A stretch of DNA of 64,000 nt from assembly GCA_028692655.1 (NCBI GenBank), contig JAQUWY010000001.1:24116-88115 (forward strand), given 5' to 3'. The position numbers and the translations under genes were made by a program. Below the pieces are notes generated by a model that was given only the letters and a program-made list of their open reading frames with translations, had not been told where the DNA came from and searched no databases. The DNA comes from Candidatus Omnitrophota bacterium (GTDB lineage: Bacteria; Omnitrophota; Gorgyraeia; Duberdicusellales; 4484-171). Below, in pieces: positions 2,089 through 41,699 of this stretch (its first letter is position 1; each line of letters opens with the position of its first letter).

Positions 2089-2300
2089 TTGCATCTTGCC
2101 TGCTTGCCACAAGTATAAGCGGGATTATTTTTTTCTTGCCTACCATTAAAATATTCAGTATAATAAAACTAATAATATTTAAATAACCTTTCCTCATCTG
2201 TAGAATTTGCTTTTGATCTGTGTATATCCGTTTTTTAATCCGTGAGAATCCGTGTAGCCATTTGTAATCGGTGTAATCAATCTTTAAAGGAGGGATTTGG

Positions 2301-3617
2301 ATGAGTAGAAAACTGGTATTTTTTCTGGTTGTTTTTTTCTTTTGTTTTTCCGCGGCCGCTTTTGCGGCGGTTGAAAACATCAAGGTAAGCGGAGATATTG
2401 GCGAGCAATACTTTGCCCGCGGCCTTACTCTTGGCCAGAGCTATAACGGAAGTAATTCTCATCAGGGTGTATTCTCTCAAATCCGCTTAAGATTTGATGC
2501 TGACTTAACCGAAGGAGTAAGCGCGACTGTCAGGTTGCTTAATGAAAGGCTTTGGAATGCCGAAGATTCAAATGATGATAAAGAATCTTTAAATTTAGAT
2601 TTAGGTTATATTGAATTAAAAGAGTTTTTCTATCAACCCTTAACTTTAATTGTCGGCCGCCAGAATTTGCGTTACGGAAACGCTATGATTGTAGGTGACC
2701 CTGACACAAACCAGACCGCCGCCGGCGAAACCCCTTCGATTGTAAGTGATTTATCCTGGAAAAAGTCATTTGACTCTATCAGGGCAATCCTTGATTTTTC
2801 TCCCTACACAATTGATGTGATTTACGCCCGTTTAAAAGAAAACGAAACCGGATATCGTGATGAGCAGAATTTATACGGCGTTAACGTAGCCTATGACTGG
2901 GCTATGGGTAATGGCGCGGTAACCGAAGGCTATTTCTTCGGCACTGATAATTCTGATTCTACCGGCACCTGGACCGATAAAAAAGACAGAGTTTATGCCT
3001 TGGGTGCCAGAACCCTGTTTCATTTGAGTGAAAATTTTACCCTTGGCACAGAAGGCGCTTATCAGTTTGGCAGAAGAGCTGTTAGTGCTACCAGCCATCA
3101 GTCACGCCGGGCTTATGCCGGACAATTTATCAGTGAATATCGGTTCAACAATAAATATGATGCCAAGATTGGCATTGATTATTCTTTCTTCTCCGGAGAT
3201 AAGCCCAACAGCGACCGCTATGAAGCCTGGGACCCGATGTATGAAGACCAGACTCCAGCTGAGCTGATGAATGTTTTGCTTACCCAGAGTAACCGTCAAT
3301 TGATAGGCTTTACCGCTTCAATGGTTCCGGTTGAAGATGTAATTTTGAAAGTAAGGTATGCCCGCGGCTGGTGCGTAAAGGGATTTACTTCTTCTATTAT
3401 ACAAGTCGCCGCAGGGCCTGCCGCCGGAAACGTCTATTATGTAAACGTAGGAAAGAAGTTTCTGGGTGATGAAATCGATATCAGCGCCAATTATGATTAC
3501 ACCGAAGATATTAAATTCAGCCTTTCCGGAGCCTGCCTGCTTCCGGGGAAGGTCTTTACCGGTGAAAACAACCATCCTGCCTATTCAGTGAGAGGCGGAG
3601 TAGTGGTTAATTTCTAA
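2301..3617 (+). CDS. outer-membrane beta-barrel protein (porin-like), paralog B
   Basis: 438 aa, same length and architecture as 717..2033. Signal peptide AFA|AVEN. C-terminal ...VRGGVVVNF. Blocks of near-identical nucleotide sequence shared with paralog A. Confidence 0.6.
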   Translation: MSRKLVFFLVVFFFCFSAAAFAAVENIKVSGDIGEQYFARGLTLGQSYNGSNSHQGVFSQIRLRFDADLTEGVSATVRLLNERLWNAEDSNDDKESLNLDLGYIELKEFFYQPLTLIVGRQNLRYGNAMIVGDPDTNQTAAGETPSIVSDLSWKKSFDSIRAILDFSPYTIDVIYARLKENETGYRDEQNLYGVNVAYDWAMGNGAVTEGYFFGTDNSDSTGTWTDKKDRVYALGARTLFHLSENFTLGTEGAYQFGRRAVSATSHQSRRAYAGQFISEYRFNNKYDAKIGIDYSFFSGDKPNSDRYEAWDPMYEDQTPAELMNVLLTQSNRQLIGFTASMVPVEDVILKVRYARGWCVKGFTSSIIQVAAGPAAGNVYYVNVGKKFLGDEIDISANYDYTEDIKFSLSGACLLPGKVFTGENNHPAYSVRGGVVVNF

Positions 3618-5465: not shown

Positions 5466-6002
5466 ATGCTAAAAGAGGTATTTTATAGTACGAGTGCCCA
5501 AAAAGTCTTATGTTTCCTTTTGGCTAATCCTGAAAAGAGATTTTACGATAGGGAAGTCTCAAGGCTTACGAAAATAGGTCGAGCAGCCGGTAATTATTCG
5601 TTGCGTACTTTGATAGCGACAGGCATTGTTAAAAGGGAAAAAAGAGGCAGGATGTATTTTTACCATGTGAGCCTCGATGATCCAATTATAAGGCAGTTAA
5701 AAATAACTCAGAATCTCATCAACATTAAGCCATTAGCTGACAAATTAAGAGATATTTCTCTGAAGATAGTTCTTTATGGAAGCTCCGCAGGCGGGACTAA
5801 TCACGCAGAAAGCGATATAGATCTGTTTGTCCTTACCCGGGATGTTAAGAAGGTCAAGGATATCGTTTATAAGAGCTCTCTTAAGCAAAAGCTTCAGCAC
5901 GTAGTTACAACTCCACAGGACTTGATTAAACTAAAGAAAGATAATCCCGTATTCTATAAGGAAGTTTCCAGCGGGATAGTTCTCCACGAGGAGAAAAGAT
6001 GA
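5466..6002 (+). CDS. minimal nucleotidyltransferase (MNT) with N-terminal winged-helix, antitoxin-type
   Basis: NTase signature LYGSSAGG...ESDIDLFVL (GS...DxD). Stop overlaps the start of the downstream HEPN ORF (ATGA). Confidence 0.75.
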   Translation: MLKEVFYSTSAQKVLCFLLANPEKRFYDREVSRLTKIGRAAGNYSLRTLIATGIVKREKRGRMYFYHVSLDDPIIRQLKITQNLINIKPLADKLRDISLKIVLYGSSAGGTNHAESDIDLFVLTRDVKKVKDIVYKSSLKQKLQHVVTTPQDLIKLKKDNPVFYKEVSSGIVLHEEKR

Positions 6003-6430
6003 GCATTGAGTTCCAAAAGGCCATAGAGAAGAAACGGATATTACACTTTGCGCCAGGGAAAAATCAGGTTAAGAAAGAGCTTCTGGAGGCAGAAAACGAC
6101 TTATCCGAGGCGTTTAATAGGTTTGAGAGTGAAAAATACAAATACGCTACTATTACCGGCTACTATTCGATGTTTCATTCTGCCAGGGCCCTTATTTACT
6201 CAAAGGGATATCGTGAGAAAAGTCATTATTATCTGCTGGTTGCTTTAAACAGCCTTTTTGTAAACGCGGGGATCTTGTCTGAGGAGATAACCTCAGAATT
6301 TCATGATGCTATGGTTTTACGCGAGGATGCCGATTATCACGGCAATTTTACTAAAGAAGGCGCGGAAGCAGTGCTCAAAACAGCAAAGGAATTTTTGGCT
6401 ACTGCTAAGACTGTCTTAAAAACCAAATAA
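5999..6430 (+). CDS. HEPN domain protein (toxin-type partner of the MNT)
   Basis: 143 aa. R-x4-H HEPN motif in LREDADYHG. Translationally coupled to the upstream NTase, the classic HEPN/MNT arrangement. Confidence 0.7.
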   Translation: MSIEFQKAIEKKRILHFAPGKNQVKKELLEAENDLSEAFNRFESEKYKYATITGYYSMFHSARALIYSKGYREKSHYYLLVALNSLFVNAGILSEEITSEFHDAMVLREDADYHGNFTKEGAEAVLKTAKEFLATAKTVLKTK

Positions 6431-6601: not shown

Positions 6602-6928
6602 ATGGAAGAAAAAAAATTCACTGAGGTAGAAATTAAGGAAGGTGCGCCTTTTGCGGCATTGTCTTATGTGTTTTTTTTGTGGATACTGACTTTTATTTTC
6701 AAAAAAGACAATGCCTTTGCTTTATATCATGCCCGCCAGGGGATAGTGATATTTATAGGAGATGTAATCTGTTTGACATTTATGTTTATACCGATTATAG
6801 GCGTTTTGTTTGGGCTGCTGGCATTAATTTTAGCGGTAGTCCGTGTGTATGGAATTCTACTCTCACTTACCGGCAAGAGCGACAAAATTTATGTAATTAG
6901 TGATTTGGCAGAAAAATTAGTTGTATGA
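6602..6928 (+). CDS. small integral membrane protein (DUF4870-like)
   Basis: 108 aa, two or three hydrophobic helices. Motif ALSYVFF...ALYHARQG typical of DUF4870-type proteins. SD aaggaggg upstream. Confidence 0.5.
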   Translation: MEEKKFTEVEIKEGAPFAALSYVFFLWILTFIFKKDNAFALYHARQGIVIFIGDVICLTFMFIPIIGVLFGLLALILAVVRVYGILLSLTGKSDKIYVISDLAEKLVV

Positions 6929-6985
6929 GGCTGAGAAACCAAAAAACGAAAAAACAGAAAAACAAGAAAACGAAAAGCATAAAGC

Positions 6986-7369
6986 ATGAGTGATATATTT
7001 CGCTTTCAGAAGTTTCCAGTATATAATGAAGCGAAATTATTTCGTCGGAAGTTAAAAGATTTAAGCAGTAGCAAATTTCCCAAGCAAGAACAGTATTGTT
7101 TGCTTTCTCAATTATGGAGAGCCTTAGATTCCATTTTACTTAATATTGCTGAGGGTTCGGATAGATACTCTGATATAGATTTTAGCAGGTTTTTAAATAA
7201 TGCGCTAACTTCTCTGAATGAAGCAGTCGCGTGCTTAGATTGTGCTTTGAGTGACTCTTATATTAATCCGGAGGAATACAGAAATTATCTTTTGGAGGCA
7301 GAGAGCCTATCTAAACAATTAAAAGCTTTTTCTTCAAAGGTAAGAAAATCGGATAGTAAGCAAAAATAG
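6986..7369 (+). CDS. four-helix-bundle protein (23S rRNA intervening-sequence protein family, TIGR02436-like), copy 1
   Basis: 127 aa. Family hallmarks: FPK.E.Y.L..QL.RA..SI..NIAEG and later ...NEA...L. Flanked by A-rich and T-rich low-complexity inverted repeats. Confidence 0.8.
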   Translation: MSDIFRFQKFPVYNEAKLFRRKLKDLSSSKFPKQEQYCLLSQLWRALDSILLNIAEGSDRYSDIDFSRFLNNALTSLNEAVACLDCALSDSYINPEEYRNYLLEAESLSKQLKAFSSKVRKSDSKQK

Positions 7370-7493
7370 ATTTTATTTATGTTTTTCCTGTTTTTAAAGC
7401 TTTTAGTTTCTTAGTTTTTATGTTTTTGGGTTTTTCAGTTTTTATGTCGTTATATCAAAAAAGTACAATTCAACGAAGGAGAAGAGGTTAATT

Positions 7494-8216: not shown

Positions 8217-8515
8217 TGACTGGTCTGATCAGAGTCTGGAAAGAGCTGGATTTACAGGATATCGAAAAAAATCTAATTGTCGTAGGCGAGCTTTCCAGCG
8301 AATGTTTTGCATGCCACAAGATTGGTATTGATTTGCATTCTATACAATGTCCCGGCTGCGGTATATATTTCAAATATGTAGGTTTCAGGCGGAGAGTTCA
8401 GGCGGGATACTTGAAAAAGCTTAAAGACCAGCATCCTCAACTTTTATTCATAGATTTTGAAGATTTCAAAAAATCTCTGGGTAAGCGCGATGCCCGGAAA
8501 TTACTGGATATCTAG
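8216..8515 (+). CDS. hypothetical zinc-ribbon protein
   Basis: 99 aa. CxxH...CPGC cysteine pairs. Start overlaps the stop of the upstream gene (TAATG). Confidence 0.4.
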   Translation: MTGLIRVWKELDLQDIEKNLIVVGELSSECFACHKIGIDLHSIQCPGCGIYFKYVGFRRRVQAGYLKKLKDQHPQLLFIDFEDFKKSLGKRDARKLLDI

Positions 8516-8814
8516 TGGAGATATTCTTGCAACTCCTTCTTTTCTAACCTCTTGATATTGAATAATTTACCTAAAATTATCTGCAAAGCTCTACGTTTTA
8601 TTTTTGATATATACCATCCGAATTCTTAGGATTTTCCCCCTCATGGTAAAAAGACAAAAAGATTTTTATATTCCCAAAGCTCTATTTTTGCGCTAAAATA
8701 TTACATAATTTAGCGTAAGCTGGGGAGCGTACATTCAAAAGAGCCGTTTCGGATGTCTGCTTCCAGATAAATAAAAAGGTTTCATAATGGCAAGTCAATG
8801 TGATTATTTAAGTT

Positions 8815-9561
8815 ATGAAGAAATTTAAAGATAAGGTAATAGTCGTTACCGGAGGCTCACGGGGTATTGGCAAAGCCTGCTGTGAGGCTTTTGCCAGAGA
8901 AGGTGCCAATATAGTTTTTACTTACAACTCAAGTCAAGAGGCTGCCAAGAGCCTGAAACAGGAAATAGAAACTTCAGGTTCGCAAGTTTTAGCCTTACAG
9001 TTAGATGTGAAAAAATATGACGCCTGCCGCAAATTTGTTGAAAAAGTTTTAGACAAATTCCAGAAAATAGACGTGCTCATCAACAATGCCGGGATCATCA
9101 ACGATAAAGCCCTTATGATGATGAGCGAAAGCGACTGGCTGGATGTTATCAATACCAACCTTAACGGCACCTTTAACGTAACCAAGAACTCTATAATCTC
9201 CTTTATGAAGCAGAGAAAAGGTAATATTATCAATATTTCTTCCTTGAGCGGGATTCTGGGCCTGCCGCGCCAGGCTAATTATGCTGCCTCAAAAGGCGGG
9301 ATGATTTCTTTTACGCGCTCCCTGGCTAGGGAAGTAGCCCCGTTAAATATAAGGGTCAATGCCATAGCCCCCGGTTTCATACAAACCGATATGATAAAGG
9401 GCTTGAGGGAAGATTACGTTAAAGATGTTCTGCCGCAGATCCCCTTAGGGCGCTTCGGTGAGGCAAAAGAAGTGGCTCAAGTTGCTTTATTTTTAGCGGG
9501 AGATGAGTCGGACTATATAACCGGACAAGTCTTAAGGGTTGACGGGGGGTTGGGAATGTGA
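8815..9561 (+). CDS. fabG: 3-oxoacyl-ACP reductase (SDR family)
   Basis: VTGGSRGIGKA Rossmann motif. NNAG. Y-x3-K catalytic pair in YAASKGG. 248 aa. Confidence 0.8.
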   Translation: MKKFKDKVIVVTGGSRGIGKACCEAFAREGANIVFTYNSSQEAAKSLKQEIETSGSQVLALQLDVKKYDACRKFVEKVLDKFQKIDVLINNAGIINDKALMMMSESDWLDVINTNLNGTFNVTKNSIISFMKQRKGNIINISSLSGILGLPRQANYAASKGGMISFTRSLAREVAPLNIRVNAIAPGFIQTDMIKGLREDYVKDVLPQIPLGRFGEAKEVAQVALFLAGDESDYITGQVLRVDGGLGM

Positions 9562-9980
9562 GGCCGCAGATGATCACTGAAGGAAAAGCGCAGATGATCA
9601 CTAATAAGAAAGATTATATTTACAAAGACTTAACTTATAGAGTAATCGGGTGTTTGTATGTTGTGCATAAAGAATTAGGCAACGTCCATAAAGAAATTAT
9701 TTATCATAAAGCTTTGGCGATAGAATTAAAGAGCAAAAATATAGCATTTGTTGACGAAAAATCCATTGATGTAAAATATAAAGGTAAAAAAATAGGAGCA
9801 TACAGGCCTGATTTTATAATAGAGGATAAAGTTATTCTAGAAATCAAGGTTTCACCGGCTATAACCAGAGCTATGCAGGATCAAGTTTATTTTTATGTAA
9901 AGGGAACTAAATACAAGTTGGTTTTATTGGCTAATTTTGGAACAAGCAAAGTTGGTATCAAAAGATTAATTTATTCATAA
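9558..9980 (+). CDS. GxxExxY family protein (PD-(D/E)xK-like), copy 1
   Basis: KDLTYRVIGCLYVVHKELG...GAYRPDFIIEDKVILEIKV matches the TIGR04256-type GxxExxY family. True start is probably internal (MITNKK...). Flanked by CAGATGATCAC / GTGATCATCTG inverted repeats. Confidence 0.7.
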   Translation: MRPQMITEGKAQMITNKKDYIYKDLTYRVIGCLYVVHKELGNVHKEIIYHKALAIELKSKNIAFVDEKSIDVKYKGKKIGAYRPDFIIEDKVILEIKVSPAITRAMQDQVYFYVKGTKYKLVLLANFGTSKVGIKRLIYS

Positions 9981-11257: not shown

Positions 11258-11308
11258 CACGGATGAACACGGATTTTTAAGAAACACGGATATACACGGA
11301 TAGATATT

Positions 11309-11683
11309 GTGGGAAAACTTGAGCAAGAAGATTTGACCTATAGAATAAGAGGCGCGATTTTCGAAGTGTATAATATATTAGGTCCGGGGTTTAAAGAGAT
11401 AATCTACCATAACTCTTTACGAGAAGAATTTGATAAGCGAAAGATTAAATATGCAGAGAAAAAAAGAGTTAAGATTGACTACAAAGGTAAACAAGTAGGT
11501 TTGTATGAACCGGACTTTGTAGTTGAAGGCAAGGTGATTATAGAGACAAAAGCGGTGGAAGTTATGCCTAAGGCGTTTGAAAAACAGTTGTATAATTATC
11601 TGAAAGCTACAGAGTATAAAATCGGAATTCTGGTTAATTTCGGTAGTGAAAAACTGGATATGAGGCGCCGTATCTACGGATAA
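11309..11683 (+). CDS. GxxExxY family protein, copy 2 (GTG start)
   Basis: LTYRIRGAIFEVYNILGPG...GLYEPDFVVEGKVIIETKAV, paralog of 9558..9980. Flanked by CACGGAT x4 upstream and ATCCGTG-type repeats downstream. Confidence 0.7.
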   Translation: MGKLEQEDLTYRIRGAIFEVYNILGPGFKEIIYHNSLREEFDKRKIKYAEKKRVKIDYKGKQVGLYEPDFVVEGKVIIETKAVEVMPKAFEKQLYNYLKATEYKIGILVNFGSEKLDMRRRIYG

Positions 11684-11816
11684 AATTATCCGTGACAGAG
11701 ATGCAGACACACAAGGATTTAAAATGGATGGATATAGATGAATATATTCTGTGTTAATCTGTATATTCAATCCGTGGGAATCCGTGTATGCAATCTGTGT
11801 GTATCCGTGTAATAAA

Positions 11817-21189: not shown

Positions 21190-22371
21190 ATGAAAGCACA
21201 TCCCGACTATAGGAAAGACTTGGAGATTGCCGCGAAGCAGATGATTCTTATCCACCGTGTGGATACTTTGATTAAACTGATTCTGCGCACTATAGTCAGG
21301 TCACTTAAGGTTAAACATGCCGGGCTTCTTTTATATGATAAAGATAGAGATGAATATGTGGTTAAGGTGTCCCGCGGTAAGGGTGGATTCAAGATTCCTT
21401 CCGGATTTACCAAAATAAATAAAGATAACGCTTTAATAAGATATTTTACTGAAGATAGCCTGCGTATTTTCGGCAAGGATGTTTTACTTCTGCGCCGGTT
21501 GAATGCTTTTTTAAGCTCAAAAAAGACCAAAAAGGATAAAAACTTAAGAACTTTTCTTGAAAGTATTAAGCTGCAGTTTTCTTTATATAACGCAAAGGCT
21601 TGCATTCCGGGATTTTTTAGGGATAAACTTATTTGTATTTTTTTTCTTGGCCAAAAGTTAGACGGTAAAGATTTCAACCGGGACGAGTTAGGATTTCTTT
21701 CGGTTCTAAGCTCAGACGCAGTAATGGCTATCCAAAATGCTTGGTTTTTCCAGGATTTGAATAACCAGCTTGGTATAAATAAAAAGCTCTTTTTACAGAC
21801 TGTGATGGCGCTTGCTTCAGCAATTGAAGCCAAAGATAAATATACAATAGGCCACACAGAAAGAGTATCAAAATATTCTTTGATAGTTGCCCAGGAAATT
21901 AAAGCAATGAAGAAAGTTCCTTCTAAGGACAGGGAAGATTTTCTGGAAAATTTAAGGATAGCGTCTTTGCTTCACGACATAGGAAAAATCGGCGTCAGGG
22001 AAGATGTGCTTAACAAAAATGGGTTTCTTGATCAAGAAGAACGCCGCGAAATCGAAAAACACCCAACGATAGGGTTTTCGATATTGAAACAAGTTGATGA
22101 ATTTCATGAGCCTATTTTAGGGGTGAAATACCACCATGAGCGTTATGATGGCAAAGGATATCCCGAAGGCATAAAGGGAAAGAAAATTCCTCTTATTGCC
22201 CAGATAATTGCCGTAGCAGATACCTTTGATGCGATGACCTCTGATAGGCCATATCGTAAGGGTTTATCCAAGGAAGAAGCAGCTAGGGTAATTGAGGAAA
22301 ATAAAGGCAAGCAATTTTCTCCTTTGATCGTGGATGCGTTCTTAAGGGTGTATAAGGCAGGGAAGCTGTAA
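21190..22371 (+). CDS. GAF domain / HD-GYP phosphohydrolase
   Basis: HD motif LLHDIGKIGV. HD-GYP signature HHERYDGKGYP. Confidence 0.8.
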   Translation: MKAHPDYRKDLEIAAKQMILIHRVDTLIKLILRTIVRSLKVKHAGLLLYDKDRDEYVVKVSRGKGGFKIPSGFTKINKDNALIRYFTEDSLRIFGKDVLLLRRLNAFLSSKKTKKDKNLRTFLESIKLQFSLYNAKACIPGFFRDKLICIFFLGQKLDGKDFNRDELGFLSVLSSDAVMAIQNAWFFQDLNNQLGINKKLFLQTVMALASAIEAKDKYTIGHTERVSKYSLIVAQEIKAMKKVPSKDREDFLENLRIASLLHDIGKIGVREDVLNKNGFLDQEERREIEKHPTIGFSILKQVDEFHEPILGVKYHHERYDGKGYPEGIKGKKIPLIAQIIAVADTFDAMTSDRPYRKGLSKEEAARVIEENKGKQFSPLIVDAFLRVYKAGKL

Positions 22372-22815
22372 TAGTCGATAGTCCATAGTCCATAGATGAT
22401 AGGCTGTACAGGTTAAGGTTAAGGTTGAGGTTGAGAAAGACAGAAAAACCGAAAAACCAAAGAATCGAAAAACGGAAGAACTAAAAACTGAAAGACCAAA
22501 AAACCGAAGAACATAAAAACTAAAAGACTGAAAAACATAAAGAATAGGGAAGTTAAGACCTTGTCTACCGGCAGGCAGGCGCTAACCGAAAACCGAAAGA
22601 ATATTTCTTTAGTAGAAATACGATAGAAATATATGGAAATACATAGAAATAAATTGTTTTGAATTTTATTCATTTGAATTTGTTTAGGGATTAGAATTTC
22701 GGATTTAGTATTTGGTTGGTTAGTATTATTGGAATTTTTGATGTTCTGGCGCTCTGGTGACTAGTGTACTGGTGTTCTTAAAATATTTATTTAACGCGTA
22801 AGCATTCTGCGAATA

Positions 22816-22903
22816 GGAGAGGTCGCATAGCCCGGTCGAGTGCGCGTGTTTGGAGAACACGTATCCGCTTTGCGGATCCAGGGTTCGAATCCCTGCCTCT
22901 CCG
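22816..22903 (+). tRNA. tRNA-Ser (anticodon GGA)
   Basis: Acceptor GGAGAGG/CCTCTCC. Anticodon stem CGTGT/ACACG with loop TTGGAGA. Long variable arm ATCCGC-TTT-GCGGAT. T arm CAGGG-TTCGAAT-CCCTG. No encoded CCA. Confidence 0.8.
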
Positions 22904-23021
22904 TTTTTTGACCTTTGGTCAAAAAACGGAGCAATTGAGCAATAGACAATAGAACAATAGATGCGTTTGCTCAATTGCGGTCTAATGCTCAATTGTTCTA
23001 TTGTTCTAAAGAAGGTGACAA

Positions 23022-23342
23022 ATGCCTTTCATGTTCGAAAATCTGGAGGTTTATAAGAAGGCTATCGATATCGCCGAAGAGCTTGGCGTTCTCACGGAAT
23101 CTTTTCCAAAAGGTAACTATTATTTAGCCGATCAGTTGAATCGAGCGGCTCTATTAATCGCGACAAATATTGCCGAGGGCAATGGTAAGTATCATAAAGC
23201 AGATAGGATTAACTTTTTTCGCATCGCTCGTGGTTCTGCGTTTGAATGTATTCCCATATTAGAATTATGTAAGCGCAAAAGATTAATCAAAGAAGAGGAC
23301 GCTTCAGGCATCAATTCGGCTAAGGCCTCTTTGAAATGGTAA
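23022..23342 (+). CDS. four-helix-bundle protein (23S rRNA IVS protein family), copy 3
   Basis: LEVYKKAIDIAEEL...FPKGNYYLADQLNRAALLIATNIAEGNGKYH...FRIARGSAFE. Confidence 0.8.
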   Translation: MPFMFENLEVYKKAIDIAEELGVLTESFPKGNYYLADQLNRAALLIATNIAEGNGKYHKADRINFFRIARGSAFECIPILELCKRKRLIKEEDASGINSAKASLKW

Positions 23343-23681: not shown

Positions 23682-23719
23682 GCCCTTGTCGGTAGAAACG
23701 ACAGGGGCTTTTTTATTTT
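23682..23719 (+). terminator. attenuator terminator 1 (ilv leader)
   Basis: gcccttgtcg-gtagaaa-cgacaggggc stem followed by ttttttatttt. Confidence 0.55.
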
Positions 23720-23844: not shown

Positions 23845-23885
23845 GGCCCCTGCCGGCGGTAAACGAGGCAGGGGTTTTTTATTTT
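23845..23885 (+). terminator. attenuator terminator 2 (ilv leader)
   Basis: cccctgcc-ggcggtaaacga-ggcagggg stem followed by ttttttatttt, 28 nt before the ilvB start. Confidence 0.55.
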
Positions 23886-25875: not shown

Positions 25876-26006
25876 GTCGACAGAAGCAGGTAGAGGCTAA
25901 GGCAAAGGCATAGACACAAAGCTTCATTTTCAGCTTAATAAAATCTCGTCAGTATTTGATTGATGGACGAGCAGGCATGTTTAAATAAGGTTTAGCTTTT
26001 ATTTAA

Positions 26007-26642
26007 GTGGGCCGAAACTGTTTGCTAATCTTGGCCTTTTGCGGTAAAATTCCATCAATGGAGAAGAAAAATATATATATAATATCTGGGCCAAATGGTT
26101 CAGGCAAGACTACTTTTGCCAAGGAATTCTTGCCTGATTATGCAAATTGTCCCAATTTTATAAATGCTGACCTTATCGCTCAGGGGTTATCTCCCTTTTC
26201 GCCTCAACAAGTGGCAATCAAAGCCGGCAAACTCGTTCTTGAACAAATCACTCAATTTTCCGAAAAAGGCCTTGATTTTGGGTTTGAGACTACTCTATCC
26301 GGAAAAACTTACCTTAAACATTTTAAGGTTTTTAAGAAAAAGGGTTACCGGCTAAATTTATTTTTTCTCTGGATTCCCAGCCCGCAGTTGTCTATAGTCC
26401 GTATTCAAGATAGAGTTAAACAAGGCGGGCATGATGTGCCAATAGCAGATATCAAGCGTAGGTTTGACAGAAGTATAGAAAAGTTTTTTAAAGAATACCG
26501 CTTATTGGCAGACAAATGGATATTATTTAATAATTCTGGGGAAAAGCCGAAGATTATTGCAAAAAAACAAAACGCACATATCGATATAATTGATAGAGAA
26601 CTAATGACGAAAATTACTAAAAAAGCCGGAGTAAAATTATGA
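26007..26642 (+). CDS. zeta-toxin-like P-loop kinase (AAA-type ATPase)
   Basis: Walker A ISGPNGSGKTTFAKE. Zeta/PezT-like length and layout. GTG start at 26007 or ATG at 26058. Confidence 0.5.
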   Translation: MGRNCLLILAFCGKIPSMEKKNIYIISGPNGSGKTTFAKEFLPDYANCPNFINADLIAQGLSPFSPQQVAIKAGKLVLEQITQFSEKGLDFGFETTLSGKTYLKHFKVFKKKGYRLNLFFLWIPSPQLSIVRIQDRVKQGGHDVPIADIKRRFDRSIEKFFKEYRLLADKWILFNNSGEKPKIIAKKQNAHIDIIDRELMTKITKKAGVKL

Positions 26643-30129: not shown

Positions 30130-30797
30130 CTTTGGTTTTATAACAAGCCGCATTCTTTAGATAACAATATAATGCTTCTGTTCCCGCCGGCCACAGTCCA
30201 CAGTCCACAGTCGATAGTCCACGGTCCACAGACTATAGGATATCCAGGATGAGGTTAAGGTTGAGAAAAACTAAAAAACCAAAAGACAAAAAAACAGAAA
30301 ACTAAAGAACTAAAAACAGAAAAACTGAAAGACCAAAAAACCGAAGAACATAAAAACTAAAAGATTGAAAAACATAAAGAATAGGGAAGTTAAGACCTTG
30401 CCTACCGGCAGGCAGGCGCTAACCGAAAAACGAAAGAACATTTCTTTAGCGGAAATACGGTAGAGATATATGGAAACAAATAGAAATAGATTGTTTGAAA
30501 AAATTCTTCGGGTCACAGGTCGCAAGCCACAGGTATCAGGTAACAGGTTATTTAAAATAACCAATAACCAAGCAACAAGAAACAAATAAATTACAATATT
30601 CAATAACCAAACAGAATGAAAAATCCAAAATCCAAATACTACCAAATCCCAAACAAATTCAAAATCCCAAATCCCAATTTTGGATTTGGTAATTGGGATT
30701 TATTTGGTAGTATTGGCATTATTGGAATTTGGGATTTTTAGCATTTTCGCTCTAACAACTTTGTTATTGAAGATAATGCGTAAGCATTCTGCGAATA

Positions 30798-30890
30798 GGA
30801 GGGGTGGCCGAGCTCGGTTTAAGGCGGCGGTTTGCTAAACCGTTGTACGGTCGAAAGTCCGTACCTGGGGTTCAAATCCCCACCCCTCCG
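30798..30890 (+). tRNA. tRNA-Ser (anticodon GCU)
   Basis: Acceptor GGAGGGG/CCCCTCC. Anticodon stem GCGGT/ACCGT with loop TTGCTAA. Long variable arm GTACGG-TCGAAAGT-CCGTAC. T arm TGGGG-TTCAAAT-CCCCA. CCA encoded at 30891-30893. Confidence 0.8.
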
Positions 30891-31092
30891 CCAATTTAAA
30901 CCTTTGGTTTAAATTGGCGGAGCAATCGATAATCGAAATTCGATTATAAGAGGTTATCGATTGCGGTCAAATTTTAACTATCGATTTTCAGAAAATTGTA
31001 ATCGCTATGCCGACGATTGTACCGAATGATCTAAGATAAACAAATTTCAACACACTGCCAAAAACACAGTGTTTAGTGTATAATAGGGTTAA

Positions 31093-33782: not shown

Positions 33783-33834
33783 CGTTCGTATATAGTATGT
33801 CGTATATAGCATTTCGCATATAGGATATCGTGGG

Positions 33835-34200
33835 TTGCAGATGGAGAAGATAAATAGCTTTAAGCAGTTAAAAATTTGGCAAAAGGGAATTGAGATTGTC
33901 AAAGACATATATAGCATTACAGAAAAATTTCCCAATAAAGAGACTCGCGGTTTAATTTCGCAGATGCGAAGAGCGTCCGTATCTATACCGTCTAATATAG
34001 CTGAAGGTTTTAAGAGATATCACAATAAAGAATATAAGCAATTTCTGTTTATTGCTTTAGGCTCTTGCGCGGAATTAGAAACTCAGTTTATCATTTCAAA
34101 TGAGCTCAGGTATATAGACAAAATAAATATGGAATTCATTTGTGAAAAATTAGACCATCTTTCAAGAATGGCTACGGTTTTAATTGGTAAACTCAAATAA
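33835..34200 (+). CDS. four-helix-bundle protein (23S rRNA IVS protein family), copy 4
   Basis: FPNKETRGLISQMRRASVSIPSNIAEG...LGSCAELETQ. Likely ATG at 33841. Flanked by an 18-bp perfect inverted repeat ttcgtatatagtatgtcg / cgacatactatatacgaa. Confidence 0.8.
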   Translation: MQMEKINSFKQLKIWQKGIEIVKDIYSITEKFPNKETRGLISQMRRASVSIPSNIAEGFKRYHNKEYKQFLFIALGSCAELETQFIISNELRYIDKINMEFICEKLDHLSRMATVLIGKLK

Positions 34201-34247
34201 CCATCACGCTGTGCACGACATACTATATACTATATACGAATTAATCT

Positions 34248-36886: not shown

Positions 36887-37003
36887 ATAAGAGCAGGTTG
36901 AGGCAGAGGTAGAGGTTGAGGAAATTCCAAATTCAAATATTGCCAAATTCCAAATAATTTCCAAACCTCAATTTCCAAAGCCTAAACGGATTCAATTAGT
37001 TTA

Positions 37004-37222: not shown

Positions 37223-37462
37223 AAAAGGCCACCAATCTATTATACTACGAAATGTAAGGGGGAGAAGCTGGAAGTTGAAGATTGTGTGGGGAAGGGTTTC
37301 GTACGGAGACCTCGACGCTTACTCAGATATTTCGTTTTCGGTTACTCAACCTAGCTCGCCTTTGGCGAATCGTTTTGAAAATAGAAAATCGACATTAGAC
37401 CGCAATAGAAAATTTTTCCTTCAATTTTCGATTCTCTATTTTCTATTGCTCTGCTTCATAAA

Positions 37463-37494: not shown

Positions 37495-37500
37495 AGCCAA

Positions 37501-37805
37501 CTCCCCGGGTAGGGCTCGAACCTACGACCTATTGGTTACGATCTGACTCACATTACTGTGAGAGTCGGACTATCCCTTTACCATGACTGAACAACTTACC
37601 CCTTATTTTATTCGGGATAAAACTTCGCTTCGTTCAGTTTTAGGTAGCGAGTGTCTAGTCTCTGCACCTTCCCTTTTGGGGCTTGGCTCAGGATTGCCCT
37701 TCGCTTGAAGGGTTTCCCTGAATTTACTCGCTGTTTCAATCTCAATTTCTTGAGAAAGCTGCTAACCTTAACAGCCAACCGCTCTACCAATTGAGCTACC
37801 GGGGA
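37501..37805 (-). tRNA. tRNA-Asn (anticodon GUU) interrupted by a group I intron in the anticodon loop
   Basis: Minus-strand exons. 5' exon (37805..37771): TCCCCGG-TA-GCTC-AATTGGTA-GAGC-G-GTTGG-CTGT. 3' exon (37538..37501): TAA-CCAAT-AGGTC-GTAGG-TTCGAGC-CCTAC-CCGGGGA-G. Spliced product is a 73-nt cloverleaf with anticodon loop CUGUUAA. Confidence 0.7.
37539..37770 (-). ncRNA. group I self-splicing intron (cyanobacterial/plastid tRNA-intron-like), 232 nt
   Basis: Intron begins after exon U. Ends in omega-G (...GAGUCAGAUCG). Core AAAUUCAGGGAAACCCUUCAAGCGAAGGGCAAUCCUGAGCCAAGCC plus P7-like GCAGAGACUAGACACUCGC strongly resemble the tRNA-Leu(UAA)-type group I intron core (GGGCAAUCCUGAGCCAA). Confidence 0.7.
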
Positions 37806-38040
37806 ATAAATTATCTAAGAACTTTCTTCCTTGACCAGACTTGAGAAATTTCTCTCTTTGCTTGGCCTCTTTTATATTAGAGAATTCTTCGTAATGCAAT
37901 AAATCAAATGGACGATTCAACCTTGTCCAGCGTGTATTTCCCGAGTTATGTTCTTTTAAGCGAATCCTCACATTCTTTGATGTGTAGCCTACGTATCTTT
38001 TACCATTATGTTTGCTTTTTAATACATAAATAAATGGCAT
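37768..38040 (-). CDS. GIY-YIG nuclease domain protein (YhbQ/UPF0213-like)
   Basis: FIYVLKSKHNGKRYVGYTSKNVRIRLKEHNSG matches the GIY...YIG...R...E...N core. Same strand as the intron-containing tRNA and directly 5' of it. The ORF's last ~38 nt overlap the tRNA 5' exon, so the true C-terminus is uncertain. Confidence 0.55.
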   Translation of the reverse strand: MPFIYVLKSKHNGKRYVGYTSKNVRIRLKEHNSGNTRWTRLNRPFDLLHYEEFSNIKEAKQREKFLKSGQGRKFLDNLFPGSSIGRAVGC

Positions 38041-38323
38041 AAGCGCTGCCTATTTAGAGCTTCCGCCAGAGGCGGATCAGCCTATGGCTGAACCGGGGAA
38101 TTCAATGAAACCGTGATTTTTAAGTATCTAGTAAAAATCGCTTGGTTGAATTAATTCCGACTGCTATCGGGAAAACTTGCTTAAAAGAGCACTAATCTGT
38201 GTAATCTTTTTCGAATCGGTGTAATCGAATATCTCATTAAGACTGCTAATTATAGCGTATTTGATAAAAAGCGTCAAGATTTTGATTTTTGTGGCCTAAA
38301 CCTGAGGAAAAGCTCTAGGAAAA

Positions 38324-38488
38324 CAGGAGAAAATTTACAAGAGAGAGTACAAAAATATCTCCTTGTAAATATTTAAAGAAAGTACTATAATTCCTTTTGT
38401 TACGGTTAAACGGATATCTATGCATTGGCAATATACCCAAATTATTTAAGTAAATCAAAGCGCTAGGAACACCTAGCGCTTTTTTTTG
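38324..38488 (+). repeat. promoter-leader-terminator module, copy A (candidate small RNA or attenuated leader)
   Basis: 126 nt identical to 41537-41662. Contains a perfect sigma70 promoter ttgtaa-17-tataat. Ends in hairpin gcgctagg...cctagcgc plus a T8 tract. Lies upstream of lipoprotein gene 38551. Confidence 0.6.
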
Positions 38489-41530: not shown

Positions 41531-41536
41531 TCCTCA

Positions 41537-41699
41537 CAGGAGAAAATTTACAAGAGAGAGTACAAAAATATCTCCTTGTAAATATTTAAAGAAAGTACTA
41601 TAATTCCTTTTGTTACGGTTAAACGGATATCTATGCATTGGCAATATACCCAAATTATTTAAAGAATTTAAAGCGCTAGGTGCCCCTAGCGCTTTTTTT
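41537..41699 (+). repeat. promoter-leader-terminator module, copy B
   Basis: Same 126-nt sequence as copy A, then a variant terminator hairpin gcgctagg-tgcc-cctagcgc plus a T tract. Lies upstream of lipoprotein operon 41750. Confidence 0.6.

Follow-up and report, generated by a model that had tools for sequence, protein, structure and literature searches.

The sequences called STRR (for short tandemly repeated repetitive) consist of arrays of 7-bp repeats that form hairpins; their function is unknown, and roles in transcript stability or translational coupling have been proposed (PMC2670836). A repeat that resembles them, here called the mosaic, was found as two look-alike blocks, one upstream of each of two tRNA-Ser genes, in a 64-kb stretch of DNA from a Candidatus Omnitrophota bacterium (contig JAQUWY010000001.1, positions 24,116 to 88,115; this whole stretch is referred to as the window). 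On balance, the two blocks are probably copies of a dispersed noncoding mosaic repeat of the STRR type or of the type of the bacterial interspersed mosaic elements (BIMEs), which would be selfish or structural rather than a control region for the tRNA-Ser genes. Like the cyanobacterial STRR sequences, the mosaic consists of tandem arrays of ~7-nt units, is intergenic, and is of unknown function. However, it mixes units of 6, 7, and 8 nt, keeps a fixed order of tracts around a nonrepetitive, invariant 44-mer, and is copied as a unit, and it occurs in Omnitrophota, a phylum other than that of the heterocyst-forming cyanobacteria in which STRR sequences are found. STRR arrays are often inverted and hairpin forming. 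This is also the case for open reading frame (ORF) cassettes in the window and for an A/C-rich versus T/G-rich hairpin at one of the tRNA-Ser loci, but the block shared by both loci has no inverted partner. The window unit CCACAGT resembles CCCCAGT and CAACAGT, which we take to be STRR units. We know of no function assigned to STRR sequences since 1990.

In the BIMEs of enterobacteria, a small GC-rich palindrome (repetitive extragenic palindrome [REP]) and short motifs follow each other in a set order. Both BIMEs and the mosaic are extragenic and dispersed and are located in both orientations between genes or at operon ends, and the GC-rich hairpin of the mosaic fits the imperfect palindrome of 20 to 40 nt that characterizes REPs. 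The mosaic is unlike BIMEs in that its nonpalindromic modules are long tandem tracts, in that few copies were seen, and in that no RayT was detected among 10 ORFs tested. BOX elements of Streptococcus pneumoniae and the mycobacterial interspersed repetitive units (MIRUs) are, like the mosaic, modular, intergenic, and nonautonomous, with a variable number of internal units. However, BOX and MIRU modules are complex and 40 to 60 nt long, compared with units of 6 to 8 nt in the mosaic, and there is no sequence relationship. The mosaic can be considered a version of these known kinds of repeat.

A further point of comparison is the intervening sequences (IVSs) of 23S and 16S rRNA. The protein family PF05635 is known as the uncharacterized ORF of rRNA IVSs (10.1101/2024.02.27.582315). 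As in IVSs, the PF05635 ORF of the window cassettes is flanked by inverted arms, which would pair into a long stem once transcribed, and there is an association with stable RNA, but the cassettes are located beside tRNAs and between protein genes rather than in rRNA, and their arms are tandem short repeats. The upstream block differs from IVSs in having neither an ORF nor a paired arm.

A dispersed, orientation-free, noncoding mosaic with an independently variable hairpin

The copy on the tRNA-Ser(GGA) side (locus 1) was designated W1, and the copy on the tRNA-Ser(GCT) side (locus 2) was designated W2. An earlier note on this DNA had estimated that 22488-22663 and 30325-30497 are about 90% identical, and alignment gave 162 identical columns out of 176 (92.0%, with 3 gap columns). 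Without gaps, the homology extended over 216 nt at 88% (22444-22659 versus 30281-30496), and gapped BLAST aligned 295 nt at 84% with an E value of ~1e-89 against the whole window, which is far beyond chance. The tandem units described around the blocks were recovered by Tandem Repeats Finder (TRF) as tracts of period 6 (AGGTTA, 3.8 copies at 22410-22432), period 7 (ATAGTCC, 3.6 copies at 22371-22395; CCACAGT, 5.9 copies at 30191-30231), and period 8 (GAAAAACC, 12.9 copies at 22435-22536; AAAAACTA, 14.2 copies at 30266-30378). In the window, which has a G+C content of 38.75% and nearly all of its genes on the plus strand, 74% of the bases in tandem arrays were located in the 17.5% that is noncoding, an enrichment of ~13-fold.

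The blocks were not confined to the tRNA-Ser genes. Exact matches to the 24-nt core CTACCGGCAGGCAGGCGCTAACCG were found on four metagenome contigs, and on three of these, which are from Omnitrophota (L003, L004, and L005), the module order of the window copies was repeated, in no case with a tRNA-Ser gene nearby. With the two copies on L004 (L004a and L004b), six mosaic copies were available, for which a five-copy alignment and an nhmmer profile were built; motif scans covered ~183 kb of sequence from several genomes. The shared order started with a GTCCAYAG tract, the junction ..CCAYAGAC..ATAGGCTRTAYAGGTTAAGG, AGGTTRAGG units, and A-rich 8-mers, and continued with the 44-mer GAAGTTAARACCTTGYCTACCGGCAGGCAGGCGCTAACCGAAAA and AACCGA units. 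The L003 copy also resembled locus 1 farther on, with a T/G-rich tract followed by a CTGGTG tract (85% identity to W1 over 54 nt of the 3' half), so that W1 and L003 have both halves of the mosaic in common in unrelated contexts. Relative to neighboring genes, W1, W2, and the L005 copy were codirectional, L003 and L004a were antisense, and L004b was in a divergent spacer. The proposal of a composite intergenic repeat family was thus borne out by copies with the same order on other contigs, in both orientations and unlinked to tRNA-Ser genes. The core motif had no match in viral contigs.

Conservation differed greatly along the mosaic. The 44-mer was invariant except for two R/Y positions, across copies that were 46 to 88% identical elsewhere, and ~105 nt comprising the 44-mer and one sub-block of the A-rich tract (sub-block c) was 96 to 100% identical among W1, W2, and L005. 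The 5' tracts of L005 were closer to locus 2 (88%, versus 75% to locus 1), and its sequence after the core was closer to locus 1 (97%, versus 91% to locus 2). L003 and L004 diverged completely past the core. The A-rich tract was found to consist of homologous sub-blocks that are present or absent depending on the copy, rather than of a free-running microsatellite. The similarity among W1, W2, and L005 fits recombination or conversion between dispersed copies.

The GC-rich hairpin in the 44-mer has the consensus CTTGYCT-ACCGGC-AGGCAGG, and it varied independently of the rest of the mosaic. The L004b copy lacked exactly the 22-nt hairpin and read GAAGTTAAAAC-T-CTAACCG, an empty site that is one base off a seamless excision. 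Solo hairpins were present in L006 and in L005, the latter as a perfect 20-nt palindrome, CCTGCCTACCGGTAGGCAGG, between two protein genes, and in all seven hairpin copies were found in the scanned sequence. The wobble pairs of the hairpin hold on the plus strand of the mosaic only; on the opposite strand they become C-A mismatches. In E. coli and Pseudomonas REPs, GTAG is located 5' of the stem, whereas GTAG/CTAC here forms the loop or apex of the palindrome. On the gene strand of the L003/L004a variant, TTTTAACTT comes next after the hairpin. These presence/absence differences and solo copies make the suggestion of a nonautonomous element plausible, chiefly for the GC hairpin. The suggested link to a RayT-like transposase found no support within the window, in which a Y1/HUH transposase was detected in 0 of 10 small unassigned ORFs tested and the mosaic was without terminal inverted repeats.

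A second GC-rich unit, the double hairpin CCGCCAGAGGCGG-AT-CAGCCTATGGCTG, was present on the minus strand as a solo copy at 38063-38091 of the window and within the T/G-rich part of the L003 mosaic (8496-8524, minus strand). The hairpin-less L004b copy (L004 2040-2440, plus strand) was followed by a near-consensus promoter, TTGACA-17-TATAAT, and then, as judged by eye, by a cobalamin-riboswitch-like sequence ahead of the next gene.

Several other identities were considered for the blocks. Protein coding was rejected for the minus-strand ORFs 22419-22673 and 30310-30645, since all six frames had stops or a large nonsynonymous excess. A miniature inverted-repeat transposable element was rejected, since there was no significant 5'/3' complementarity, no terminal inverted repeats, and, in the five-copy alignment, no visible direct duplication at the ends. 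An IVS-like PF05635 cassette was rejected for the blocks themselves, which had no ORF with a coding signal and no paired arm, and an integron attC reading of GTTAAG../..CTAAC was dropped by eye because the 7-mers do not fit GTTRRRY/RYYYAAC. In Rfam searches at gathering and permissive thresholds, no family matched the block; only tRNAs and a group I intron reached threshold in the window, and there was no meaningful sub-threshold match in 22300-23100. Pairing partners for the tracts, sought inside the blocks and beyond the unit formed by the tRNA and the downstream PF05635 four-helix-bundle (4HB) gene, were not above chance (126/200, 106/200, and 170/200 shuffles scored as high).

The two loci differed in the middle of the spacer by a 140-nt indel. 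At locus 2, the A/C-rich and T/G-rich arms paired over 44 nt at 73% and over 27 nt at 81%. The fold of locus 2 was better than that of shuffled sequences (z = -5.8), whereas that of locus 1 was not (z = -1.56); the excess at locus 2 is apparently due to the extra A/C-rich versus T/G-rich low-complexity hairpin (30619-30740) that is not present at locus 1. The AGGTTRAGG units were also reported to recur directly after the stop codons at 25876, 30240, and 36887. This was correct for 36887 and, in the form of a degenerate mini-version after the ilvN stop codon, for 25876, but the 30240 site is inside the locus 2 block, ~110 nt past the nearest ORF stop (30129). An additional A-rich/AGGCTGAG copy was located at 6923-6984. 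A second assembly of the same population (GCA_028715335.1), at 99.99% identity, has a contig that stops within the locus 2 block; a practical consequence is that such repeats break metagenome-assembled genomes.

Leader, post-tRNA hairpins, and trailer module

In the earlier note, block, leader, and post-tRNA hairpins had been taken together, but the evidence indicates three elements with different distributions; both the leader and the module that follows the tRNAs differ in distribution from the block. The bodies of the two tRNA-Ser genes were only 62% identical to each other, and their flanks were far more alike (84 to 100%).

The string before the tRNAs is indeed identical at the two loci. 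Its 23 nt, however, consist of a 20-nt leader, GCGTAAGCATTCTGCGAATA, plus the first 3 nt of the tRNA (GGA). The leader had two exact copies in the window and no other even at 3 mismatches, with 0 expected in shuffles, and its self-structure was weak (-1.8 kcal/mol). A promoter scan detected a promoter-like GTGACT-16-TAAAAT at 22757-22784 ahead of the locus 1 leader, and GATAAT at 30772-30777 abuts the leader of locus 2. No convincing pairing between leader and trailer was seen by eye. A scan of 185,579 species genomes for the leader returned only the ortholog in L002, a related species with ~88% overall identity to the window, and a chance match in a coding region of Marinilabiliaceae; the leader was not present at the tRNA-Ser genes of the more distant Omnitrophota L008 and L010. 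In L002, the stretch from 85 nt upstream through the tRNA to its hairpin (30713-30925) was 100% identical to the window, against the background of ~88%, whereas upstream of position -85 of tRNA-Ser(GCT) there was unrelated DNA, an apparent insertion, followed by the contig end. The 20-nt sequence is probably a promoter-proximal 5' leader of the pre-tRNAs that is removed by RNase P. Its identity in both genes could reflect selection or conversion between them.

The replacing DNA in L002 (3725-3844, minus-strand view) resembles an insertion sequence inside the T/G-rich tract; at the contig edge, it finishes with the start of a reverse-oriented ORF (MKYRKWDPKTKAKIVL...).

These upstream regions lend no support to the suggestion that the blocks are promoter or UP elements. 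UP elements are rich in A and T and are placed immediately upstream of the -35 box, at about -40 to -60. The A-rich tracts are 270 to 530 nt upstream, with 267 nt left between tract and tRNA at locus 1 and 412 nt at locus 2, and other mosaic copies are not upstream of promoters and point away from their neighbor genes or lie antisense to them. Furthermore, the complete Omnitrophota genome L019, in which GGDEF-HD and tadA are followed by exchanger, dnaX, and recR in synteny with the window, has tRNA-Ser(GCT) behind a plain 110-nt spacer: the order is tadA, 110 nt, tRNA-Ser(GCT), a plain hairpin, and the exchanger, and mosaic, 20-nt leader, and trailer module are all missing from the locus. The block was also not found at the tRNA-Ser locus of L010. 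Thus, the block is a lineage-specific addition, and at least one syntenic Omnitrophota genome does without it in expressing tRNA-Ser. The nearest database relatives, as judged by ilvB and the Na/Ca exchanger, were only 63 to 69% identical, and the comparison with an empty locus is therefore one with the distant L019.

As had been described, both tRNAs are followed by hairpins with the same loop; the stems are perfect and have the common apex ACC-TTT-GGT. The last five bases of each tRNA (CTCCG) are part of the 5' arm of its hairpin. Because the hairpin uses the tRNA end, trailer hairpin and acceptor stem would be partly mutually exclusive in the precursor, and in the predicted fold of the locus 1 precursor, the trailer hairpin wins over the acceptor stem.

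The hairpins are continued by a module with the order C(A/G)GAGCAATYGA, low-complexity units, YCRATTGCGGTC(T/A/C)AWT, and complementary units. Pairing in its stem, GCAATYGAR/YTCRATTGC, reached 91.8%, against no more than 49% in slid controls, and two positions showed three pair types. The stem had 6 compensatory cells, whereas shuffled alignments had 1.4 ± 1.0 and 0 of 500 reached 6; compensatory changes in the stem were also seen with RNAalifold. A covariance model gave three matches in the window, one 3' of each tRNA, and none elsewhere in 183 kb; the three matches follow by construction, and the result is the absence elsewhere. In Rfam, the module as scanned at locus 1 matched no family at gathering or permissive thresholds.

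The trailer module followed tRNA-Ser(GGA) in L007, a tRNA remnant in L008, tRNA-Ser(GCT) in L010, tRNA-Arg(CCT) in L004, tRNA-Gln(CTG) twice in the Elusimicrobia contig L011, and the intron-containing tRNA of the window. In five contexts it was followed in turn by a PF05635/TIGR02436 4HB gene, and the combination was found after Ser-GGA, Ser-GCT, Gln-CTG, and the tRNA remnant in different genomes. The module at locus 2 is without an ORF, whereas its ortholog in L010 has the module and a 4HB gene at the same position.

Integration at tRNA genes usually leaves tRNA fragments behind as scars. Duplicated or degenerate fragments beside intact tRNAs or the exchanger were observed in L008 (1500-1680), L010 (3690-3800), L018 (2920-2970), and L019 (2930-2980); examples are a repeated tRNA-Arg 3' end with its trailer (L008) and a piece of a tRNA-Ser anticodon arm (L010). 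The tRNA with the intron in the window was called tRNA-Thr(CGT) by ARAGORN with introns allowed, but we think that it is better read as tRNA-Asn(GUU), on the basis of splice rules (the 5' exon ends in U and the intron in G) and the G discriminator. The region of this split tRNA was 73 to 74% identical at the DNA level in two other Omnitrophota genomes, L018 and L019. The frame of the GIY-YIG nuclease ORF directly upstream of the split tRNA continues into the 5' exon, and a GIY-YIG gene was found right after tRNA-Ser(GGA) in L008.

Competing explanations for the mosaic

The strongest of the competing explanations, although itself unlikely, is a generic boundary element at the ends of transcription units. 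The hairpin would then be a 3'-end stabilizer or weak terminator, the unstructured A-rich tract would serve as a spacer or as the place where a termination or decay factor loads, and the two together would insulate the downstream promoter, here that of tRNA-Ser, from read-through. Such a role would account for tracts that begin 0 to 5 nt past the upstream stop codon at 22372, 6923, 25876, 33785, and 36887 and in L005, for the promoter-like site or gene start after four of the six copies, for the hairpin followed by TTTTAACTT on the gene strand of L003 and L004a, and for the nearly invariant 44-mer. However, both orientations occur, with C-A mismatches in the opposite-strand hairpin, L019 manages without the mosaic, and the scan predicted no intrinsic terminator in either window copy, the ordinary terminators of the window being conventional stems with a T run (e.g., 23690-23717 and 23850-23883). 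A lower probability is assigned to decayed cassette arms, i.e., to a mosaic that is the remnant of one or several IVS-like cassettes minus ORF and partner arms, with a tract series made up of leftover solo arms, and was later copied as a unit. The tracts of neither copy had a significant complementary partner, nothing in intact cassettes corresponds to the 44-mer, and the order was kept in five copies, indicating that the mosaic itself is copied. On the other hand, AGGYTGAG and A-rich 8-mer series form the left arm of the intact 4HB cassette 6923-7447, the paired A/C-rich and T/G-rich hairpin persists at locus 2, the window has intact cassettes with significant arms, and ORF-less arm pairs exist in L008. 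More doubtful again is a REP/BIME system proper, in which the hairpin would be a REP mobilized by a RayT (Y1/HUH) encoded elsewhere and the mosaic a BIME-type assembly. A hairpin that occurs in the mosaic and solo and is missing from one copy would be expected of a REP, as would the intergenic location in both orientations and the GTAG/CTAC in the perfect-palindrome version CCTGCCTACCGGTAGGCAGG, but none of the 10 small window ORFs tested encodes a Y1 transposase, GTAG is at the apex of the palindrome instead of 5' of the stem, the copies seen number only seven, and the empty site is not seamless.

A small noncoding RNA gene within the conserved ~105 to 175 nt (sub-block c, 44-mer, and GAAATA tract), for example for an A-rich protein sponge with a terminal hairpin, is quite improbable. 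No promoter or terminator was predicted around the conserved stretch, the locus 1 fold was no better than shuffles, the copies are too few and too similar for covariation, and L003 and L004 diverge completely after the core; its attraction comes from the ~105 nt that are nearly identical in three copies, the G-U pairs kept on the plus strand alone, and the Shine-Dalgarno-like AGGTTGAGG units and ARN-like A-rich runs. We consider a tRNA-Ser-specific control region, whether as UP element, upstream activating region, or long regulatory leader, very improbable. Although both full window copies are upstream of, and codirectional with, tRNA-Ser genes and are followed by the identical leader, the copies on L003, L004, and L005 have no tRNA-Ser gene nearby, the A-rich tract is distant from the tRNAs, L002 has foreign sequence upstream of -85 with the proximal 85 nt 100% identical, and the block is not present in L019 or L010. 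Hardly tenable is a simple segmental duplication of one tRNA-Ser region, which is refuted by the copies at non-tRNA loci. Colinearity of the loci, which begins at the GTCC tract and reaches the post-tRNA module, speaks for a duplication, but they carry different isoacceptors with bodies far less alike than their flanks, and the 140-nt indel interrupts the spacer.

The reading of the blocks as copies of a dispersed selfish or structural mosaic repeat ranks above a generic function (RNA-end hairpin or boundary) and above a REP-like single-strand mechanism, for which the nearly invariant 44-mer and the wobble pairs confined to one strand nevertheless leave room. Several observations weigh against it. 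The 64-kb window has only two copies, both full copies are upstream of and codirectional with tRNA-Ser genes, and six copies were seen in all, the others being on related metagenome contigs that may come from other species. Filled and empty sites are available for the hairpin only, rather than for the whole mosaic at a closely related orthologous site, and the empty site is non-seamless by one base. The near-invariance of the 44-mer and the 96 to 100% identity over ~105 nt could be a sign of a sequence-specific function, and the G-U pairs on the plus strand alone hint at an RNA or single-strand role that a selfish or neutral view does not explain. The mosaic may also be linked to stable-RNA flanks.

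If the blocks are copies of a dispersed mosaic, recombination or gene conversion between copies, together with slipped-strand change in the tracts, may have kept them alike and shuffled them, and they may be tolerated because they lie in spacers between transcription units. The mosaic would most likely be without a locus-specific function, and any function would be no more than a generic one, such as that of a spacer or RNA-end hairpin. The leader is a separate, lineage-specific part of the tRNA-Ser transcription units. The hairpins begin a third element, the conserved, base-paired trailer module, which is the 5' flank of apparently mobile PF05635 cassettes and is followed by the gene at locus 1 and ORF-less at locus 2. 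Stable-RNA flanks in this lineage may collect short-repeat-armed mini-cassettes, and both tRNA-Ser genes would then be alike on both sides because such flanks collect them.

Short-repeat-armed cassettes and neighboring features

The block alone is one more intergenic repeat family, probably without a locus-specific function; it is the context that matters. The window contains four TIGR02436 genes, two GxxExxY genes, and one GIY-YIG gene, and three of these small genes are located between inverted arms of tandem short units, each with its own unit (Table 1).

Table 1. Mosaic copies, tRNA-Ser elements, and short-repeat cassettes in the 64-kb window
Feature	Position	Strand	Description and support
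Mosaic copy W1	22372-22778	+	TRF; five-copy alignment; nhmmer 22370-22674, E 8e-89
W1 modules 1 to 3	22372-22395; 22410-22435; 22435-22548	+	ATAGTCC/GTCCATAG tract; AGGTTA/AGGTTG tract; A-rich 8-mer tract
W1 modules 4 and 5	22549-22592; 22593-22663	+	Invariant 44-mer; AACCGAAA and GAAATA-type tract
W1 modules 6 and 7	22664-22750; 22751-22778	+	T/G-rich tract; CTGGTG tract
GC-rich hairpin of W1	22560-22579	+	CTTGTCT-ACCGGC-AGGCAGG; 7 pairs, two of them G-U on this strand; REP-like insertable unit
20-nt leader GCGTAAGCATTCTGCGAATA	22796-22815 and 30778-30797	+	Directly 5' of tRNA-Ser(GGA) and tRNA-Ser(GCT)
tRNA-Ser(GGA)	22816-22903	+	ARAGORN; Rfam RF00005, 50.5 bits
15-bp hairpin	22899-22931	+	CTCCGTTTTTTGACC-TTT-GGTCAAAAAACGGAG; 100% complementary; overlaps tRNA-Ser(GGA) 3' end
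Trailer module, locus 1	22927-23010	+	CGGAGCAATTGAG..(CAATAGA units)..CTCAATTGCGGTCTAAT..(TCTATTG units); covariance model 22927-22986, 77.7 bits; 5' flank of 4HB gene
4HB gene, PF05635/TIGR02436	23022-23342	+	Pfam 7e-25; TIGR02436 1e-21; payload downstream of tRNA-Ser(GGA)
Mosaic copy W2	30186-30740	+	TRF; nhmmer 30182-30512, E 3e-95
W2 modules 1 to 3	30186-30238; 30245-30264; 30262-30385	+	CCACAGT tract; AGGATGAGGTTAAGGTTGAG; A-rich 8-mers
W2 modules 4 and 5	30386-30429; 30430-30497	+	Invariant 44-mer (hairpin copy 30397-30416); post-core tract
W2 modules 6 and 7	30510-30550; 30556-30677 with 30679-30740	+	CACAGG tract; A/C-rich arm paired with T/G-rich arm
tRNA-Ser(GCT)	30798-30893	+	ARAGORN; Rfam, 53.7 bits
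17-bp hairpin	30886-30922	+	CTCCGCCAATTTAAACC-TTT-GGTTTAAATTGGCGGAG; 100% complementary; overlaps tRNA-Ser(GCT) 3' end
Trailer module, locus 2, ORF-less	30918-30995	+	CGGAGCAATCGAT..ATCGATTGCGGTCAAAT..TATCGATTTTC; covariance model 30918-30972, 65.1 bits
Trailer module, third copy	37370-37453	-	3' of intron-containing tRNA; covariance model 37394-37453, 71.4 bits
Degenerate mini-version	25876-25915	+	GTCGACAG, then AGGTAGAGGCTAAGGCAAAGG; after ilvN stop codon
Mini tract series	36887-36980	+	AGGTTGAGG-type units, then AAATTCC-type A/C-rich units; directly after stop codon
Cassette	6923-7447	+	AGGCTGAG and A-rich 8-mer arm 6923-6984; T-rich complement 7376-7447; 4HB gene 6986-7369, TIGR02436 1e-21
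Cassette	11258-11811	+	(CACGGAT)n and (ATCCGTG)n arms; GxxExxY gene 11306-11683, TIGR04256 1e-37
Cassette	33785-34240	+	TTCGTATATAGTATG-type and TATAGTATG-type arms; 4HB gene 33835-34200, TIGR02436 5e-35
Split tRNA	37500-37806	-	~232-nt group I intron, Rfam RF00028, 82.7 bits, at 37546-37780
Small GIY-YIG nuclease ORF	37768-38040	-	Pfam 8e-17; directly upstream of split tRNA

The arms of the 6923-7447 cassette paired over 48 nt at 77%, a score reached by 0 of 200 shuffles, as was also the case for the 11258-11811 arms. For the 33785-34240 cassette, the arms paired over 21 to 23 nt at 87 to 90%, and 2 of 200 shuffles reached the score; this cassette is inserted between dnaX and recR, which abut each other in L018 and L019. 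It was also observed that the 33785-34240 cassette is kept in place in L002 at ~96%, compared with 88% overall, and is thus better conserved than the surrounding genes. ORF-less arm pairs were present in L008.

The 4HB homologs were 75 to 93% identical across Omnitrophota, Elusimicrobia, Auribacterota, and Verrucomicrobiota, in different neighborhoods; where the homologs reached 85 to 93%, searches with the neighboring genes found nothing above 69% (ilvB) or 63% (exchanger). Between the window and L007, DNA identity was 94% over the tRNA end, the module, and the ORF, and homology stopped abruptly at the 3' end of the ORF. The high identity of the 4HB genes relative to their neighbors and the abrupt end of homology indicate that the cassette is apparently horizontally mobile.

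The same design as in the three cassettes of the window, with STRR-type arms, was found on the Nostoc sp. C052 plasmid pC052_D (219828-220984), where a 4HB gene is located between (GGGAACA)4 upstream and the reverse-complementary (CTGTTCC)7 downstream. On plasmid gamma of Nostoc PCC 7120, noncomplementary low-complexity tracts were seen on both sides of the 4HB gene, and none were seen in Calothrix. The 4HB/23S rRNA intervening-sequence protein family, which is very widespread and of unknown function, and STRR-type heptamers thus share one cassette architecture in Omnitrophota and on a Nostoc plasmid. In addition, a structured RNA motif that had no Rfam match in the locus 1 scan travels 3' of tRNA genes with the cassettes. 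If confirmed, these findings would provide concrete sequences for studying cassette movement and the tolerance of host transcripts. Literature searches returned no paper describing the cassettes, the tRNA-trailer module, the mosaic, or a link of PF05635 to tRNA flanks or short repeats.

A broader and rather unlikely proposal is that the tracts, GC hairpins, and trailer module form one cross-phylum system of RNA-level, IVS-like mini-cassettes. In such a system, cassettes would carry PF05635, GxxExxY, and GIY-YIG ORFs into stable-RNA flanks and operon spacers, and the tandem-repeat arms would give a register-tolerant double-stranded RNA that is cut by RNase III and leaves the host transcript unharmed. 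The CAGAGCAAT...ATTGCGGTC module would be a docking or processing signal beside tRNAs, the mosaic blocks would be ORF-less landing pads or remnants, and STRR sequences would be the same phenomenon.

Several other features of the window were recorded. The other GxxExxY/PD-(D/E)XK gene is located at 9558-9980. A nucleotidyltransferase/HEPN pair (5466-6430) and a zeta-toxin-like ATPase (26007-26642) share the 64 kb with the seven small "hitch-hiker" ORFs. An unrelated repeat pair at 38323-38486 and 41536-41699 (164 nt, 96% identity), upstream of two different ORFs, had no sequence kinship to the mosaic. Two tandemly duplicated genes for 438-aa proteins, together with their upstream regions (709-2033 and 2293-3617), were 73 to 83% identical at the DNA level.

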